From positions 1-64,000 of IMG/VR virus record IMGVR_UViG_3300019935_000002: a stretch of DNA of 64,000 nt; one strand, written 5' to 3'. The DNA is from a virus. A program made the translations under genes and the position numbers. Positions 2,528 through 56,859 of the stretch are shown piece by piece. Each line of letters starts with the position of its first letter. Position 1 is the first letter of the stretch. Under the pieces are notes generated by a model, which was not told the origin of the DNA, made no database searches, and saw nothing but the letters and a program-made list of their open reading frames with translations.

Positions 2528-2968
2528 CTATCTTCGTTTGTTGCTTGCAGCCCTACGTCGGAACGCCCCCAAAATCTTGTCGTCCAGATTGTCCTCAGAT
2601 TTGACTGCCGTATAGGGATCAACGGAGCTGGGGTCCTGACCTGAGAAGTAGTGACTAACATAGGCGACACTCATTTGCCGGATAGCTCTAACCTCACTAG
2701 GACTTAAACACACCCCTGTCAAATTCACGTAAGACTCTATCTCAGACCAAGGTATTGACTGAGGGCCATTAGCCCCTGGGACGAACATCCCTATCTCTTC
2801 AAATATGTCAACCAAGTGCTTAACGTCTGACACGTCCGGTAGTTCGCAATCCCCCAACTCGGAACGGGTCTTTCTTTCCTGCTTTTTACTGGAGTATTCG
2901 GGGTCAGGTACAGATGACAGCCAGCCTTTTTTGCTAGCGTAAGTGACTAGCTGCCTGGTTGCTTTGGG
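2528..2968 (-). CDS. Tail assembly chaperone T segment, reached by -1 frameshift (gpGT equivalent)
   Basis: The -1 frame stays open from the slippery site (KATRQLVTYASKKGWL...) into ORF 2528-2857, which has the 'IPWSEIESY..LTG..LSPSEV..IRQMS' chaperone motif. Confidence 0.8.
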   Translation of the reverse strand, partial: PKATRQLVTYASKKGWLSSVPDPEYSSKKQERKTRSELGDCELPDVSDVKHLVDIFEEIGMFVPGANGPQSIPWSEIESYVNLTGVCLSPSEVRAIRQMSVAYVSHYFSGQDPSSVDPYTAVKSEDNLDDKILGAFRRRAASNKRR

Positions 2969-49337: not shown

Positions 49338-50129
49338 AGGTTCACCTTTGTGTGTGCGGGCTAGCCCACCAAATAAAAATGTCCGTCGACCCATTTGATG
49401 CGCATTCCCACCTTGTAGCAGGTAGCAAAAGCATCAGTCAGGGTCGTGTTGAGTGGTATGTCCACCTTTAGACGGATAGCCATCAGTAAGGCCTCGCAGA
49501 TTGGCAGATTGCCTCGCAGAATTTAAGGCAAGCCTCGTGCTCAGGCTCGGTTAGATTCGATTTCTCAATCTCCTCTCCTTCCTCACCAGTGGCCCAGTTG
49601 TGGTTCGTGATGGAGAACTGGTCAGAGAGCACCATCACAGTCACGCCATGGTTCGCAGACACCTCATTACGCAGGATCAGAGTTGCGCGTCCACGAGTGC
49701 TAAAATCCGCCTCCAGCTTGTAAGCCTTGAGGTAGCGCGGCAGCAGATCCGCCAGGCAGGCCCCAAGCTGGGTCAGGTCGGTGGGGTTGGCAAGGGTTGT
49801 GATTACGGGCTGGGTGTCTGAATGGGTCATAGAGTTGGTCACGAGGTTGGTCATGGGTTCACCTTTAGGGAAGTTGAGGCTTAGAGTTGTGTGCGTAGGT
49901 GTAACTTGGTGTCTGAATAGGCCTGAGGCTTATCAGAATGGATTCTAAGGCGTTTTCTTTGTTGACAGGTACGATGGCCGCACCTTTATGGGTTGAGCCT
50001 TAGAATCGAAAATAGGGCCACCTTTACTGACAGAGGGTTGAGAGTGGTCAGTCGGGGGGTGGGTCATGAGTCGAGGCACCTTTGCAGGTAGCGCCTAGCA
50101 GATGTAAGCAAAGGTGTCAATGCCCTGCT

Positions 50130-51230
50130 AGTGAGGTCAGAAAACAGGGTGGGTACTCGAAAATGCAAGAAATTTCGGAATTTTTTTTTTTGTTTTGAAA
50201 GTGCGCTCAGAAATGACGAATGTGACCGTGACACGATAAATAGTCACGCTAAAGTAATTATATTATTATTTATATTTATTAAAAAAAAAAAAAAAAAAAA
50301 AAGAAGTTCTGGCTAGTGTTGCTAACGCATTGCTGTTGCACCCTGCCAGTACCCGTGTAGAACGAAAATGGGACATTTTGACACAGGTTAAATCGCGGTT
50401 AATTCGCAATTAAATTCGGGTATAGAAGAACTAAAAAAATTTAATATAAATCTCTTATAACTCGATTTTCGGATTTTTTGCGTTCAAACAGGTGTTTGAA
50501 TGAAATCGTGGCAGACTTTAACCCGAAATTAACCACAAATTGACCCCGAATTAACCACTTTGTACCCGAAACCAATTGCAAACGTATTGCGAACTAACCG
50601 CGAACTAGTTGTGTATTAACCCGTCACCTAAATAATAAGTACCTTTAATCAGTTGTGATTAAATTGCGAACCTACCCCGTTCAAGTTGCTTATCAGTTGC
50701 TAATTAACCACTGATAAGACATCCCTAATATTCGGGTTAAGTCTTGGTTAAATCCGGGTACTAAATTTTGGGTTAAATCCGGGTACTAAATTTTGGGTTA
50801 AATCTGGGTAGTGTCGCAATTAAATCGTGGTAGGTTTACAGTTAGCTATTGGTAATTATTTTATAAAAATTATCTTATAAGAACTCAGTAGTTCAATATG
50901 AGTCTTTTATAAAAAATCCGAGGTTACAAACTGTTACAAAAATACCAAAACGGGTTAAATAAGGGTTAACTCTGTAATAGCGAAACCAAAGTTAACCCTT
51001 ATTTAACCTCTATTAAGTTGCTATTGAATTGCGAAACAACTTAGTTCTAACCCTTCTACTGTTGCGAATTAATAGTTATTTAACCCGAAACTAAGCGACC
51101 AAATTACGGCAAATCCGGCCTTTCGCGCCTGAAATCCAGCCTCTAACCTCTGCCGAATCTTGACGGTGTAAAAGGATTTTTCTATTAAAATCTCTTAAAT
51201 ATAAAATAATTTTTGCAGCCTGGACGACGA
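50130..51230. repeat. AT-rich non-coding region with 11-bp-phased repeats and a 25-bp tandem repeat (candidate origin or packaging terminus)
   Basis: TTAACCCGAAA-like units at 50518-50572; inverted units at 50391-50422; GGTTAAATCCGGGTACTAAATTTTG x2.6 at 50746-50810. Confidence 0.7.
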
Positions 51231-51257
51231 AAGCCCCAGCCGGTTGCCCGACTGGGG
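51229..51257 (-). terminator. Probable intrinsic terminator
   Basis: CCCCAGTCGG-GCAA-CCGGCTGGGG followed by CTTTC (short U tract). Confidence 0.5.
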
Positions 51258-51274
51258 TTAGCGTTTCCGCTTCA

Positions 51275-51302
51275 ATCTCTATTGCGCTTTGTTGTGCCTA
51301 GT
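51275..51302. repeat. 28-bp perfect inverted repeat, left arm
   Basis: ATCTCTATTGCGCTTTGTTGTGCCTAGT is the exact reverse complement of 52307-52334. Confidence 0.97.
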
Positions 51303-51332
51303 TGGGTTGGGAATTGATCAGGCTAGGCCTGA

Positions 51333-52277
51333 TTAGAAATATTGAACCAGTTCTGAAAGGATTTTCTTAAGCTGGTTCACTTCAGGAGCTTCAGACGCTA
51401 GAGCGTCTTTAGCCTGAGATTTTAAAGCCTGCACGGCTTCAAAGTTTAACTGAATGGCGTTTAGCATACTTGCTAAGCCTTCGGTCTTCTCTTCAGACAT
51501 AAGCAGGTTAGCCGCCAGCTCTACACGCTTAGATGCGTCTAGCGCGGCCTCGCTACTCTTGTCCAAGGCTTTTTCAATGCTAGACGCTGCTTTCTTTGCG
51601 TCCGCTTCAGGGTCGTTAAACTTTCGGTTATCCTTGCCGTTTTGCTTGAAGCTACGCAGGCTGTCCCAGTACGCAGGCGGACGCTTGCGCCACATGTAGC
51701 CTTTTTTGCGCTTAAGCAGCACAACCAGCTCTTTCTTGCCGCCAGAATCACCAGCGGTTCCGATGGCCTCTTGGGCTGTCGCGTCTGTCGCTACTACATC
51801 CTTTTTCTGTACACGTACAATAAAAGGTGTAGTTGCTTCCAGATACTTTTTAGCGGCATCAAAATCATGCCGCCAGCCCTTGCTAGTGTACATCAGCCAA
51901 AGGATAGATTGGATTAAGGAGAAGTCTTTATTGCCTGAATCCTGCAAGCGCAAAATACCGGATTGAAGACTATCATTTACCGTTTCCCTGTTAACCGTGC
52001 CATCCTTGAACGCCTGCACTGTTGAGGCGTAGGACTTCAAAGATTCGGCCAGTTTTAAAGGCATATCCGCGAACGTTTCCACGGCTTCAGGATCAGCTTC
52101 AGCAGTAGCATTCTGCAATGCGGCTAACTCAAACTTAGCCGCATCTTGCCAGCTTTTTGCCGGTTGTCCTGTAAGGTCTTTGTACCCCTTCAAAGTCTTA
52201 TATTCTTCTTTTAAAAGAAGAGTGCAAGACTCAATTTGGGCCGAGGTAAAGTCTGTTTTTGCTGTATTTGTTTGCAT
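51333..52277 (-). CDS. Hypothetical 314-aa helical protein enclosed by the 28-bp inverted repeat
   Basis: GTGGTG SD and ATG at 52277; stand-alone transcription unit. Confidence 0.8.
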   Translation of the reverse strand: MQTNTAKTDFTSAQIESCTLLLKEEYKTLKGYKDLTGQPAKSWQDAAKFELAALQNATAEADPEAVETFADMPLKLAESLKSYASTVQAFKDGTVNRETVNDSLQSGILRLQDSGNKDFSLIQSILWLMYTSKGWRHDFDAAKKYLEATTPFIVRVQKKDVVATDATAQEAIGTAGDSGGKKELVVLLKRKKGYMWRKRPPAYWDSLRSFKQNGKDNRKFNDPEADAKKAASSIEKALDKSSEAALDASKRVELAANLLMSEEKTEGLASMLNAIQLNFEAVQALKSQAKDALASEAPEVNQLKKILSELVQYF

Positions 52278-52306
52278 AGTAATCACCACTTTTAAAAGAA
52301 ATGAGG

Positions 52307-52334
52307 ACTAGGCACAACAAAGCGCAATAGAGAT
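52307..52334. repeat. 28-bp perfect inverted repeat, right arm
   Basis: ACTAGGCACAACAAAGCGCAATAGAGAT. Confidence 0.97.
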
Positions 52335-52337
52335 AAA

Positions 52338-52350
52338 TTGTTAAGGAGCG
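52338..52350 (-). promoter_or_regulatory. boxA-like antitermination element 2
   Basis: CGCTCCTTAACAA(TTTATC), compared with rrn leader boxA TGCTCTTTAACAATTTATC. Confidence 0.65.
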
Positions 52351-52411
52351 AACGGGTAACATCTCGCTAAACTGGCAACACTGTCAACCAGTTATTAACC
52401 CGTGATCTTAA

Positions 52412-52566
52412 TCTAGTTTGCTTGTTCCGCTAAACTGGCGTTCCCTGCTGGTGATGGTAGGTGGGCGCATCCTGCGCCCTTTCTTCACATAGTCTTATAC
52501 TCTGCCCCGCATGGCGGCAACAGACGGCAGCCCGTACAAAATGCACGTCCGAGCAAGCAAACCAAA
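52412..52566 (-). ncRNA. Candidate stem-enclosed small structured RNA in the leader
   Basis: Arms 52551-52566 and 52412-52427 pair (about 15 of 16 positions, allowing G-U); internal hairpin GGGCGCA-GGA-TGCGCCC. Confidence 0.55.
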
Positions 52567-52596
52567 TTGTTAAAGAACAACCGCCAGATCAGGCGG
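52567..52596 (-). promoter_or_regulatory. boxB-like hairpin plus boxA element 1
   Basis: CCGCC-TGATCT-GGCGG followed by TGTTCTTTAACAA. Confidence 0.7.
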
Positions 52597-52665
52597 GCAG
52601 CCATCCCGCGCGGGGCTGGCCTGTAAATTAGGGCAATCAAACTGAAATACCCTAACCACAAAGTA

Positions 52666-52694
52666 ACTATAGCAAAGTATAAAAGACTTTGCAA
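52666..52694 (-). promoter_or_regulatory. Strong sigma70-like promoter with extended -10 and AT-rich UP region
   Basis: TTGCAA-17 nt-(TGc)TATAGT with an A/T tract upstream. Confidence 0.7.
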
Positions 52695-52958
52695 ACTCTT
52701 TTATAAAAATAGTAATAAATAAGTACCACGGTTAAAAATTCACGGTTATTAGAGTTACCGTGAAAAAATAACGAACTAGCAATATGACTGTTGCCTTGGG
52801 ACTGGTCACACCAGCCAGCCAGCGACAGAGACCCCCTCCCCAAAATGTTATGTTATAACGTAACATTTCACTCCTACCCTAACTCGTGATATTTTTGGAT
52901 TTTTAAAGTTAGTACCCGAATCCAACCCGTCAGCCTCCCTCCGACCAGAACCAGCCCC

Positions 52959-53017: not shown

Positions 53018-53578
53018 ATGAAATACGTTAAAGAGCTGAGGCTACATAAGGTTGGCGATATCCTCACCGGCAAAGATGGCAGAGACATGGGAGTCGTAGA
53101 GCACCTGAAATCAAAAGCCTGCGAAGTAGTGTCAAGCTCTAGCTTTATGGAAGCTGAGGAGCTAGTCCTAACCTTCAAATACGGCGCGCTTAGTGAAGAG
53201 TACCTGCATAGGTACGATAATCAGTTAGGCCCTTACCAACTGACTCTGCACCCCTCCGAGCAGAAGGTCGTCAGATCCGCCACCGTGTTCCTGCTGGGAG
53301 CGTCACTCTCCGATAAGAGTGTATGGAAGTTCATCGATAGCATTGAATGGGCCGATAGAATCACTGCCGAGGAGAGTATGTGCGAATACATTGACATCTC
53401 GCGAGGCGGCCAAGTGGTACTGACCATCACCGTAGAAAAGCCTCTGACCCAGGAAGATTTGATTGAGACCCTGGAGAAATCCCCGACCAACTACGTCATA
53501 AAGTACGTTGAGCTGACAGCTGATGATCGCTGCGACTTTGAAGAGGTGGACCGAAAAGCCTACGAGACTATAAGATAG
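53018..53578 (+). CDS. Hypothetical protein
   Basis: AAGGA SD; first ORF of the rightward arm. Confidence 0.65.
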   Translation: MKYVKELRLHKVGDILTGKDGRDMGVVEHLKSKACEVVSSSSFMEAEELVLTFKYGALSEEYLHRYDNQLGPYQLTLHPSEQKVVRSATVFLLGASLSDKSVWKFIDSIEWADRITAEESMCEYIDISRGGQVVLTITVEKPLTQEDLIETLEKSPTNYVIKYVELTADDRCDFEEVDRKAYETIR

Positions 53579-54917: not shown

Positions 54918-54946
54918 TTGACATAGGCTCAGAACCTGCCTAGTAT
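54918..54946 (+). promoter_or_regulatory. sigma70-like promoter of the ncRNA/tRNA operon
   Basis: TTGACA-17 nt-TAGTAT. Confidence 0.75.
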
Positions 54947-54952
54947 AGGGAC

Positions 54953-55611
54953 TGTTCAAATAGGTAGTTCCTTCCGGCTAGTCCGGAGGTTTTGGGTACC
55001 TCATCCAGGTACGGCATCTTAGCAGTGACACAGGCCTTTAAGGAGGTTCGACTGTGTAGCGGGTGCCTAATCGGCCGTAATGAGCAGCAGTGGGTTTTCT
55101 GAGTTCCCTTGAGCCGTCCGCCGGCACGGTCTGCGAATGCCGGCATCTGTTTGGTTTATGCGAAGCGATCTGGCCTCATCGCCTATAGATCGTGGAGGAA
55201 CCCCCATAAGTAGATGAGTGCTTGTGCAAGGGTGAGACTTAAACCGCTAAACAGGACGCCCTGCCAGCTAAGCTGGAGCCTGCACTAACCTGTAGTAAGG
55301 TCGAGCCCATGGCGGGTAATAAGTGCGTGGGACTATAGGGCAGTTGCAGGACTCTGCCACCCGCTGACTGACCAGCGGTTAAACAACACCTGCACCCGTG
55401 AAAGCGGAAACCCTTCGAGGTCGCAGAAGTAAAAGCGGCAACCGGCACCATCAGCGGTATATCTGGTGGTCGTTGGTTAGGGCTATTAGTTTGAAAAGGG
55501 TGTCTAAGTAAGCTTTCGGCCTCTGCATTCACCGATCAAAATACCACGCGGCCGCTTTAGAACAGAAGAGTGGAGAGTGAGGTTGGAATCCTCATAGCCC
55601 TAACCAATGAC
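54953..55611 (+). ncRNA. Large structured ncRNA candidate (GOLLD/ROOL-class)
   Basis: No plausible + strand ORF; own promoter; many hairpins; 17-bp terminal long-range helix; crossing helices; tRNA neighbourhood. Confidence 0.7.
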
Positions 55612-55638
55612 AATAATCTACGCAAGCAGGGTGTCATA

Positions 55639-56001
55639 ATGAGACAGCTAGACGACCACAAAATAAACCCAGCAAACGACACTATAAATATCACAGTTCT
55701 GGACGAACCTGGGGCAGGCGGAGCTTGCCACGAATATGAAATCAGCCACAGCGAAATGCCGTCGACTGTTATCAGCTTTCAGAACGGCCCGATTAGTGAA
55801 GAAGGGGTCGGAGTAAACGGCCTGACCCATGAAGTACTGCTGGCTATACTAGCTGATCGTCTGAGGGGTTTTCAGTCTGGCCCCTACGCATGTAAGGCCA
55901 ACGAGCAGGCGCTAACGAAGCTGGAAGAAGCGCAGCACTGGCTACAGCAGCGTACGCTGGAGCGCATGCGACGCGGCGTTGAGGGAACTCATAAGGTTTA
56001 A
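55639..56001 (+). CDS. tad1: Tad1-family anti-Thoeris/anti-CBASS nucleotide sponge
   Basis: GAGGACHEY, ISFQNGP, LLAILADRLRGFQSGPYAC..N..ALTKLEEA..W...R...R..RGVEGT match Tad1 along its whole length. Confidence 0.85.
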   Translation: MRQLDDHKINPANDTINITVLDEPGAGGACHEYEISHSEMPSTVISFQNGPISEEGVGVNGLTHEVLLAILADRLRGFQSGPYACKANEQALTKLEEAQHWLQQRTLERMRRGVEGTHKV

Positions 56002-56785: not shown

Positions 56786-56859
56786 AGGTCGGTAGCTCAA
56801 AGGTAGAGCAGAGGTTCCAAACTCTCGTGTCGAGGGTTCGATTCCCTCCCGGTCTGCCA
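56786..56859 (+). tRNA. tRNA-Trp(CCA) with an irregular anticodon stem
   Basis: AGGTCGG/CCGGTCT acceptor, TT-CCA-AA loop, GGTTCGATTCC, CCA end. Confidence 0.75.

Follow-up and report, generated by a model that had tools for sequence, protein, structure and literature searches.

The boxA unit and its elements

The complete genome of an uncultured phage (IMG/VR record IMGVR_UViG_3300019935_000002; 78,394 bp with terminal repeats) carries on its minus strand a unit in which a predicted promoter and two boxA elements precede a 314-amino-acid (aa) open reading frame (ORF) whose flanks are complementary to each other. We analyzed this unit in the window formed by bases 1-64000 of the record, 64,000 nucleotides (nt) in all. 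An earlier note on the same DNA had likened the unit to a bacterial ribosomal RNA (rrn) operon. The elements on which this comparison turns are the following, in the order in which they would be transcribed.

52724-52699, minus strand: A/T-rich tract resembling an UP element (24 of 26 positions are A or T), upstream of the promoter
52694-52666, minus strand: predicted sigma-70 promoter TTGCAA-17-TGcTATAGT, with the TG of an extended -10 element
52596-52581, minus strand: boxB-like hairpin CCGCC-ugaucu-GGCGG, ending 2 nt before boxA1 and present in both the minimum-free-energy (MFE) and the centroid fold
52578-52567, minus strand: boxA1, GTTCTTTAACAA, matching the consensus GYTCTTTAANA at 11 of 11 positions
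52403-52352, minus strand: long imperfect hairpin in a boxB-like position, from the fold, ending 2 nt before boxA2
52349-52332, minus strand: boxA2, GCTCCTTAACAATTTATC, matching GYTCTTTAANA at 10 of 11 positions (T5C)
52334-52307, minus strand: 5′ (leader) arm of a 28-bp helix, ending 29 nt before the start codon
51333-52277, minus strand: 314-aa ORF encoding an orphan phage protein, whose conserved central motif (RKRPPAYW...) is basic
51302-51275, minus strand: 3′ (trailer) arm of the 28-bp helix, beginning 30 nt past the stop codon

The strong promoter proposed in the earlier note was recovered at 52694-52666. Only five sigma-70 matches in the whole genome, this one included, reach a score of 11 or more; the promoter lies 88 nt upstream of boxA1. 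The proposed boxB-like hairpin with its boxA (52596-52567) and the proposed second boxA, which we place at 52349-52332 with one change from the consensus, were likewise confirmed. The consensus against which they were scored is that of the gamma-proteobacteria and is experimentally based (PMC5725501). In the whole 78,394-bp genome, GYTCYTTAACAA matches only boxA1 and boxA2, which are separated by 229 nt on one strand. Another boxA-like 12-mer, found at 53036 on the minus strand, was rejected as a coding coincidence, being antisense to the start of a plus-strand ORF of 186 aa. Taken together, the match to the consensus, the position in a leader downstream of a predicted promoter and the hairpins that end 2 nt before each copy identify both elements, as far as their sequence can tell, as boxA of the rrn type.

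The hairpin before boxA2 also holds a TTGACA (52387-52382), seen by inspection of the sequence, with a poor -10 element, GATGTT. This could possibly be a weak second promoter comparable to rrn P2, and is offered as a possibility only.

The leader and trailer arms form a perfect 28-bp helix

The leader arm shares its first 3 nt with the end of the boxA2 extension, starts 3 nt past the boxA core and includes the G/U-rich UUUGUUGUG, which is boxC-like by position. As the earlier note had described, it is perfectly complementary to a partner just past the stop codon of the ORF: 52334-52307 pairs with 51302-51275 at 28 of 28 positions. The energy of this duplex is -49.9 kcal/mol, compared with -23.8 ± 2.3 kcal/mol for 100 shuffled sequences, a difference of about 11 standard deviations. 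When the 1151-nt transcript is folded, the MFE and centroid structures both contain this helix, closed around the ORF. The repeat is the only long-range inverted repeat of at least 16 nt in the genome. The flanks of the gene thus form an rRNA-style leader-trailer helix, that is, a long near-perfect duplex whose 5′ strand comes directly after boxA.

One alternative is that the unit has no function and combines a chance resemblance to boxA with a recent inverted duplication; in its favor is that the unit comes from a single genome without comparators. However, the genome would be expected to contain about 0.03 exact matches to the boxA 12-mer pattern by chance, whereas it has two, neighboring each other on the same strand downstream of a promoter. 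In addition, about 1e-9 inverted matches of 28 nt within 5 kb would be expected by chance, and the similarity stops sharply at the borders of the helix. We therefore regard a functionless origin as extremely unlikely.

A perfect repeat with sharp borders would also be expected of an element that acts at the level of DNA, with the 28-bp repeats serving as recombination sites of an invertible segment or marking the ends of a small mobile cassette with an orphan gene. The low G+C content of the gene (47.1%, versus 51.7% for the genome) fits this explanation, as does the observation that the helix-bounded cassettes of SP6-like phages, described below, look interchangeable. However, the complete genome lacks Resolvase and Phage_integrase domains and with them any serine or tyrosine recombinase, the borders of the repeat show no target-site duplication, and the arm has no other copy in the genome. 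Contigs of four microbial-mat samples cross both arms in the reference orientation only, with no variants or joints, with the reservation that contigs can hide rare forms. Because there is no recombinase and only one orientation was seen in the four samples, an invertible or mobile cassette is very unlikely. Moreover, the start of the 5′ arm 3 nt past boxA is a register that only a function at the RNA level explains.

Order and register match those of an rrn leader

The syntax of rrn leaders is boxB, boxA and boxC, followed by the leader-trailer helix (PMC10250234). The earlier note had claimed this syntax (boxB, boxA, 5′ arm) for the phage unit, and the claim holds: in the rrn operon of a Sodalis metagenome-assembled genome (MAG; locus L010), the order of hairpin, boxA and 5′ arm and the register of the 16S helix are equal to those of the phage unit. 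Relative to boxA, the hairpin at 52596-52581 is placed where E. coli-like and Sodalis rrn leaders have their boxB hairpin. Furthermore, the 18-mer of boxA2 is identical to the boxA of a genuine rrn leader in the Sodalis MAG, where it lies 126 nt before the start of 16S.

The pairing that follows boxA was examined uniformly at 29 loci with GCTCYTTAACAATTTAT, comprising the window's own, 7 on genome contigs and 21 distinct viral loci. A strong downstream partner was found at only two of the 29, namely the phage locus (-50.8, compared with -31.9 for the control) and the genuine rrn operon (-62.3, compared with -37.8).

The boxA2 18-mer was also seen in an uncultured gamma-proteobacterial MAG (L003, 1366-1383, minus strand). 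There it follows a hairpin that resembles a terminator, and an ORF for a secreted protein begins about 20 nt further on. This may be a cellular boxA-regulated gene, or chance.

The same layout occurs in SP6-like and other phages

In phage SP6 (locus L051), boxA occurs at 656 and 926, and each copy is followed directly by an arm that pairs 230-560 nt downstream, giving spans of 656-925 and 926-1522. The two helices enclose gp1 and gp2-gp4, and the second consists of 30 continuous pairs. K1E (locus L052) has helices that start at boxA 894, 1663 and 1975, and the same succession of boxA and arm as in SP6 was found in K1E, CrRp3, the Klebsiella phages cp4 and 6939, the Lelliottia phage phD2B and a Pectobacterium phage. 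In this group the arms pair 200-650 nt downstream, around early genes, with energies of -45 to -53 kcal/mol compared with about -30 kcal/mol for reversed controls. The arm sequences vary between phages while the pairing is kept, and the few positions that depart from Watson-Crick pairing are G.U when read on the sense strand, whereas the opposite strand would have C.A there. These two features indicate that the helices of the SP6 lineage have been selected as RNA. In many SP6-like relatives, the junction of boxA and arm is the only part that is conserved (query positions 57-114).

The 17-mer that contains boxA1, GTTCTTTAACAATTTGG (including TTTGG), occurs exactly at 86 IMG/VR loci, about ten times a rough chance estimate for a collection assumed to comprise some 6e10 bases. 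A clean helix of 21-28 bp that starts at boxA was present in at least 5 of 54 distinct IMG/VR loci with this 17-mer. These five, on unrelated viral contigs (L077, L088, L108, L123 and L134), have the helix partner 150-700 nt downstream. The enclosed segment is a single 213-aa ORF in L077 and a 47-aa ORF in L134, and is free of ORFs in L088, L108 and L123, where in the last it measures 542 nt. Within this wider set, the phage unit described here is a clean example of the layout: its helix is perfect, and the single gene that it encloses is the largest.

A different association was seen at three further loci of uncultured phages, L031 (boxA 2541-2557, minus strand), L043 (9699-9715, plus strand) and L047 (4073-4089, minus strand). 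There, a consensus promoter and an exact rrn-type boxA lie within long tRNA arrays or head them, and in L031 and L047 a tRNA-Glu begins about 10 nt past the boxA extension.

The first stem and the end of the unit

Between the two boxA elements and beyond the trailer arm, the unit contains additional predicted structures.

52566-52551 and 52427-52412, minus strand: arms of a first stem seen in both the MFE and the centroid fold; the roughly 123 nt of RNA between them are rich in hairpins and free of ORFs
51271-51260, minus strand: mini-hairpin with a GNRA loop, from the fold
51257-51234, minus strand: terminal G+C-rich hairpin of 10 bp, followed by CUUUCGUCGU, a weak U-tract; the feature extends to 51222

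The earlier note had proposed a 16-bp stem behind boxA1 that would enclose a small RNA. The stem is present in both folds, with two G.U pairs and one C.A mismatch in its pairing; its energy (-19.5 kcal/mol) is no better than that of shuffled sequence, being reached by 125 of 500 shuffles. The stability of the leader fold is ordinary (z = -0.9 and -1.7), and a search of Rfam gave no family at E ≤ 1. For these reasons, a discrete small RNA is not established. The first stem also contains a possible ORF of 20 codons (MRPPTITSRERQFSGTSKLD; 52474-52409, minus strand), whose Shine-Dalgarno sequence and AUG are buried in a GGGCGCA/UGCGCCC hairpin; this ORF could encode a leader peptide or could be without meaning.

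As for the terminator that had been proposed at the end of the unit, we found a strong 10-bp hairpin that lacks a proper U-tract, and a terminator scan, in which it fails the U-tract criterion, did not call it. The weak U-tract is relevant to another explanation, according to which boxA serves mainly for processive antitermination, comparable to lambda nut, into an iteron-rich, origin-like region and the 45-kb minus-strand block that begins at 49854, while the helix is a local stabilizer of the mRNA. Consistent with this explanation, the unit is followed first by 1.3 kb of non-coding iterons and next by a long operon in the same direction. However, rrn-type complexes work mainly against Rho and not against intrinsic hairpins. 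In addition, the arm abuts boxA just as it does in the rrn and SP6-like helices, which ties boxA to the helix. We consider downstream antitermination unlikely to be the main role of boxA here.

The enclosed ORF and the setting of the unit

The 314-aa ORF belongs to a family of about nine metagenomic members with 24-68% identity. Its homologues, three at 65-68% identity and five more distant, are all metagenomic and are conserved along their length. The ORF is a real gene. No function, family or fold was recognized for it with Pfam, PHROGs, PADLOC, a PDB profile search or the ESM Atlas, and its AlphaFold model is poor (predicted local distance difference test, pLDDT, 56).

The genome encodes a family-A DNA polymerase, a primase, an SbcC-like protein, a terminase, a thymidylate synthase and 4 tRNAs. 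The nearest sequenced relatives of the phage are only about 32% identical to it in the polymerase; the DNA polymerase relatives, mainly from Vibrio phages and one Pseudomonas phage, reach at most 33% identity. The same DNA as that of the window was found in several microbial-mat metagenomes. Near, distant and protein searches of a phage collection with the locus and the ORF returned nothing, and nothing was found when IMG/VR and JGI metagenome contigs were searched for the ORF family or the polymerase. A T7-type RNA polymerase was not found in the phage by a search whose control was uninformative, a result that fits reliance on the host RNA polymerase. No phage-encoded RNase III was found in the genome, so the host enzyme would be the one to act.

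The boxA unit sits in an internal divergent control region, between minus-strand replication genes from 49854 and plus-strand genes from 53018. The suggestion that it is the first-expressed locus found no support; the unit is internal and away from the ends of the genome. Between the divergent promoters at 52694 (minus strand) and 52959 (plus strand) are operator-like palindromes at 52741-52764 and 52843-52866 (CACGGTTA...TAACCGTG; AATGTTA..TAACATT), which suggest a repressor-controlled switch region.

Directly 3′ of the unit, the non-coding segment 50380-51100 (41% G+C) is densely filled with GGTTAAAT, CGGGTTAA and TTCGCAAT repeats in both orientations; related copies are found near promoters, at 52378-52412 and 52905-52928. 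This array is likely a replication origin or an array of regulator-binding sites. Further on, non-coding homopolymer runs at 50181-50301 (on the plus strand, roughly 11 T and roughly 22 A; on the minus strand the A run reads T22) precede the block of replication genes.

On the plus strand, a strong promoter (TTGACA-17-TAGTAT) heads the region 54918-55640, which continues with about 690 nt that are ORF-free, G+C-rich and hairpin-rich (fold z = -1.8). It includes a 21-nt inverted repeat (55469-55489 and 55591-55611), lies just upstream of a small ORF and a tRNA-Met, and had no Rfam match at E ≤ 1. We regard it as a candidate for a large phage non-coding RNA beside the tRNA genes. At 56786-56859 (plus strand), between tRNA-Arg(CCT) and tRNA-Gly(TCC), ARAGORN reports a tRNA with an abnormal two-base anticodon, 'cc'.

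A proposed mechanism

We propose that the unit is transcribed by the host RNA polymerase and copies the rrn syntax at the RNA level, with Nus factors acting at boxA and a closing helix that is cut or clamped by RNase III. Our confidence in this full mechanism is somewhat better than even; that a helix acting at the RNA level is coupled to boxA we hold with greater confidence. On the evidence of its sequence, the phage probably borrows the host machinery for the transcription and processing of rRNA. The present analysis shows the elements, their non-random occurrence, their rrn-like register and the recurrence of the layout in other phages, and the steps that we infer are as follows.

The host RNA polymerase would start at the promoter 52694-52666, and the nascent leader would expose in turn the first hairpin with boxA1, a structured spacer, and the second hairpin with boxA2. 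NusB and NusE would bind boxA and, together with NusA, NusG and SuhB, would convert the RNA polymerase into an antitermination complex of the rrn type. Protection from Rho would then cover the leader of about 380 nt and the gene behind it. Such resistance to Rho would be useful because the first approximately 380 nt are untranslated.

The rrn antitermination complex has been proposed to act as a chaperone that holds the leader arm. In the phage unit, boxA2 lies directly 5′ of the leader arm, and tethering to the polymerase could hold this arm ready for the trailer arm, which is made about 1 kb later. The arms would then pair as the perfect 28-bp helix and close the 314-aa ORF into a loop. RNase III, for which this helix would be an ideal substrate, would cut it and free the mRNA from the boxA leader, and the paired ends left after cleavage would be expected to resist both 5′-end-dependent and 3′-exonucleolytic decay. 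The arms lie just outside the ribosome footprints, and the Shine-Dalgarno sequence stays free.

The helix lies exactly between boxA2 and the Shine-Dalgarno sequence, with boxA2 about 48 nt upstream of the latter. This arrangement would also suit translational control by Nus factors, in the manner of the lambda N leader or suhB. According to this explanation, regulation is the main purpose of the unit: the complex at boxA2 represses the ORF while the RNA is looped, and the helix and its cleavage by RNase III release the message. The precedents are known, since lambda nutL represses the translation of N and RNase III relieves this repression, and suhB is repressed by a boxA up to 100 nt from the Shine-Dalgarno sequence (PMC5725501). 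However, the SP6-like layout encloses several genes at once, for which a general role in packaging or processing is the better fit. Translational control is compatible with the mechanism proposed above and does not exclude it; as the main purpose of the unit, we consider it doubtful.

Several points weigh against the proposal that the unit copies an rrn operon at the RNA level. The unit is known from the DNA of one genome, and none of the sequencing runs found to contain the locus is an RNA run. In boxA2, position 5 of the consensus is C instead of T, and the boxA consensus and the RNase III of the host are assumed. The energy of the first stem lies within the range of shuffled sequences, and the terminal hairpin was not called as a terminator. 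Finally, the 28-bp helix contains no wobble pairs or compensatory changes, and because it is perfect, the pairing itself cannot prove selection on RNA rather than on DNA.

More tentatively, the arrangement may be general: many unrelated phages might wrap single protein-coding messages, and some non-coding RNAs, in rRNA-style helices behind boxA. In this wider proposal, to which we lean less than to the mechanism for the single unit, the rrn complex would serve as an RNA chaperone that keeps hold of the 5′ arm while the 3′ arm is still to be made, RNase III would free stable, end-clamped and Rho-proof mRNAs, and conserved boxA-arm junctions would be portable borders at which early-gene cassettes are swapped. 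If true, the mRNA of this phage would be a 'pseudo-rRNA', in which the chaperone and looping function of the rrn antitermination complex is exploited for an ordinary message. Phages would then shield their early transcripts both from Rho, a silencer of foreign DNA, and from RNases, while encoding no factor of their own. Since the cultured phages SP6 and K1E share the layout, E. coli and Salmonella offer a direct test of the idea. For expression cassettes that are to be stable and insulated, the layout suggests a compact natural design.

Comparison with known systems

The Nus factors with boxA, and leader-trailer helices, belong to textbook rRNA synthesis; outside rRNA, boxA is found in the lambdoid nut sites, in suhB and in a few other genes. 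In the phage unit, as in rrn operons, the promoter is preceded by an A/T-rich tract, a hairpin comes immediately before boxA, and boxA has the rrn sequence; the 5′ arm, which includes a G/U-rich stretch, begins 1-3 nt from boxA and has its partner past the enclosed gene. In contrast to rrn operons, the unit encloses a translated 314-aa ORF rather than rRNA, with no tRNA or 23S next, and its helix is perfect and only 28 bp long. Nus loading and RNase III cutting are attributed to it by analogy.

SP6- and K1E-like phages resemble the unit in that exact boxA copies recur in their early regions, and each leads at once into a helix arm that pairs on the far side of one to three early genes. They differ from it in being unrelated phages with small cassettes (0.2-0.65 kb, with genes of 30-70 aa), whose arms co-vary among relatives.

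Pairing between the ends of one mRNA is also known from the 5′ and 3′ untranslated regions of S. aureus icaR and B. subtilis hbs, where it is connected with RNase III (icaR) or with control of stability (hbs) (PMC3868564, PMC5737220). The icaR pairing covers the Shine-Dalgarno sequence and blocks translation, whereas the phage helix leaves the Shine-Dalgarno sequence free and is coupled to boxA.

With lambda nutL-N and E. coli suhB, the unit has in common a boxA with a hairpin upstream of the first gene, a Nus complex on a protein-coding leader, and modulation by RNase III. Lambda differs in that N protein is needed, that boxA precedes boxB, and that the RNase III site is a local structure; suhB differs in that its boxA has no helix. 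A search of the literature, which did not extend to the 2004 description of the SP6 genome (PMC374404), found no account of boxA with a leader-trailer helix around a phage protein-coding gene. The suggestion in the earlier note that the architecture is new for a phage gene was nevertheless too strong, because T7 has an exact boxA ahead of mRNAs processed by RNase III, and the arrangement of nutL and an RNase III site before N in lambda is classical (cited in PMC5725501).

In T7, the exact boxA lies at 813-823, between promoter A3 and gene 0.3. The early mRNAs of T7 are flanked or separated by RNase III sites in local hairpins. T7 thus resembles the phage unit in that host-polymerase promoters and an exact boxA precede early mRNAs processed by RNase III in a lytic phage. 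It differs in that its hairpins are local and lie between genes, and the T7 boxA is not followed by a long-range helix (best duplex -29.9, compared with -34.5 for the control). The boxA of T7 with its RNase III sites is the nearest classical case to the unit described here.

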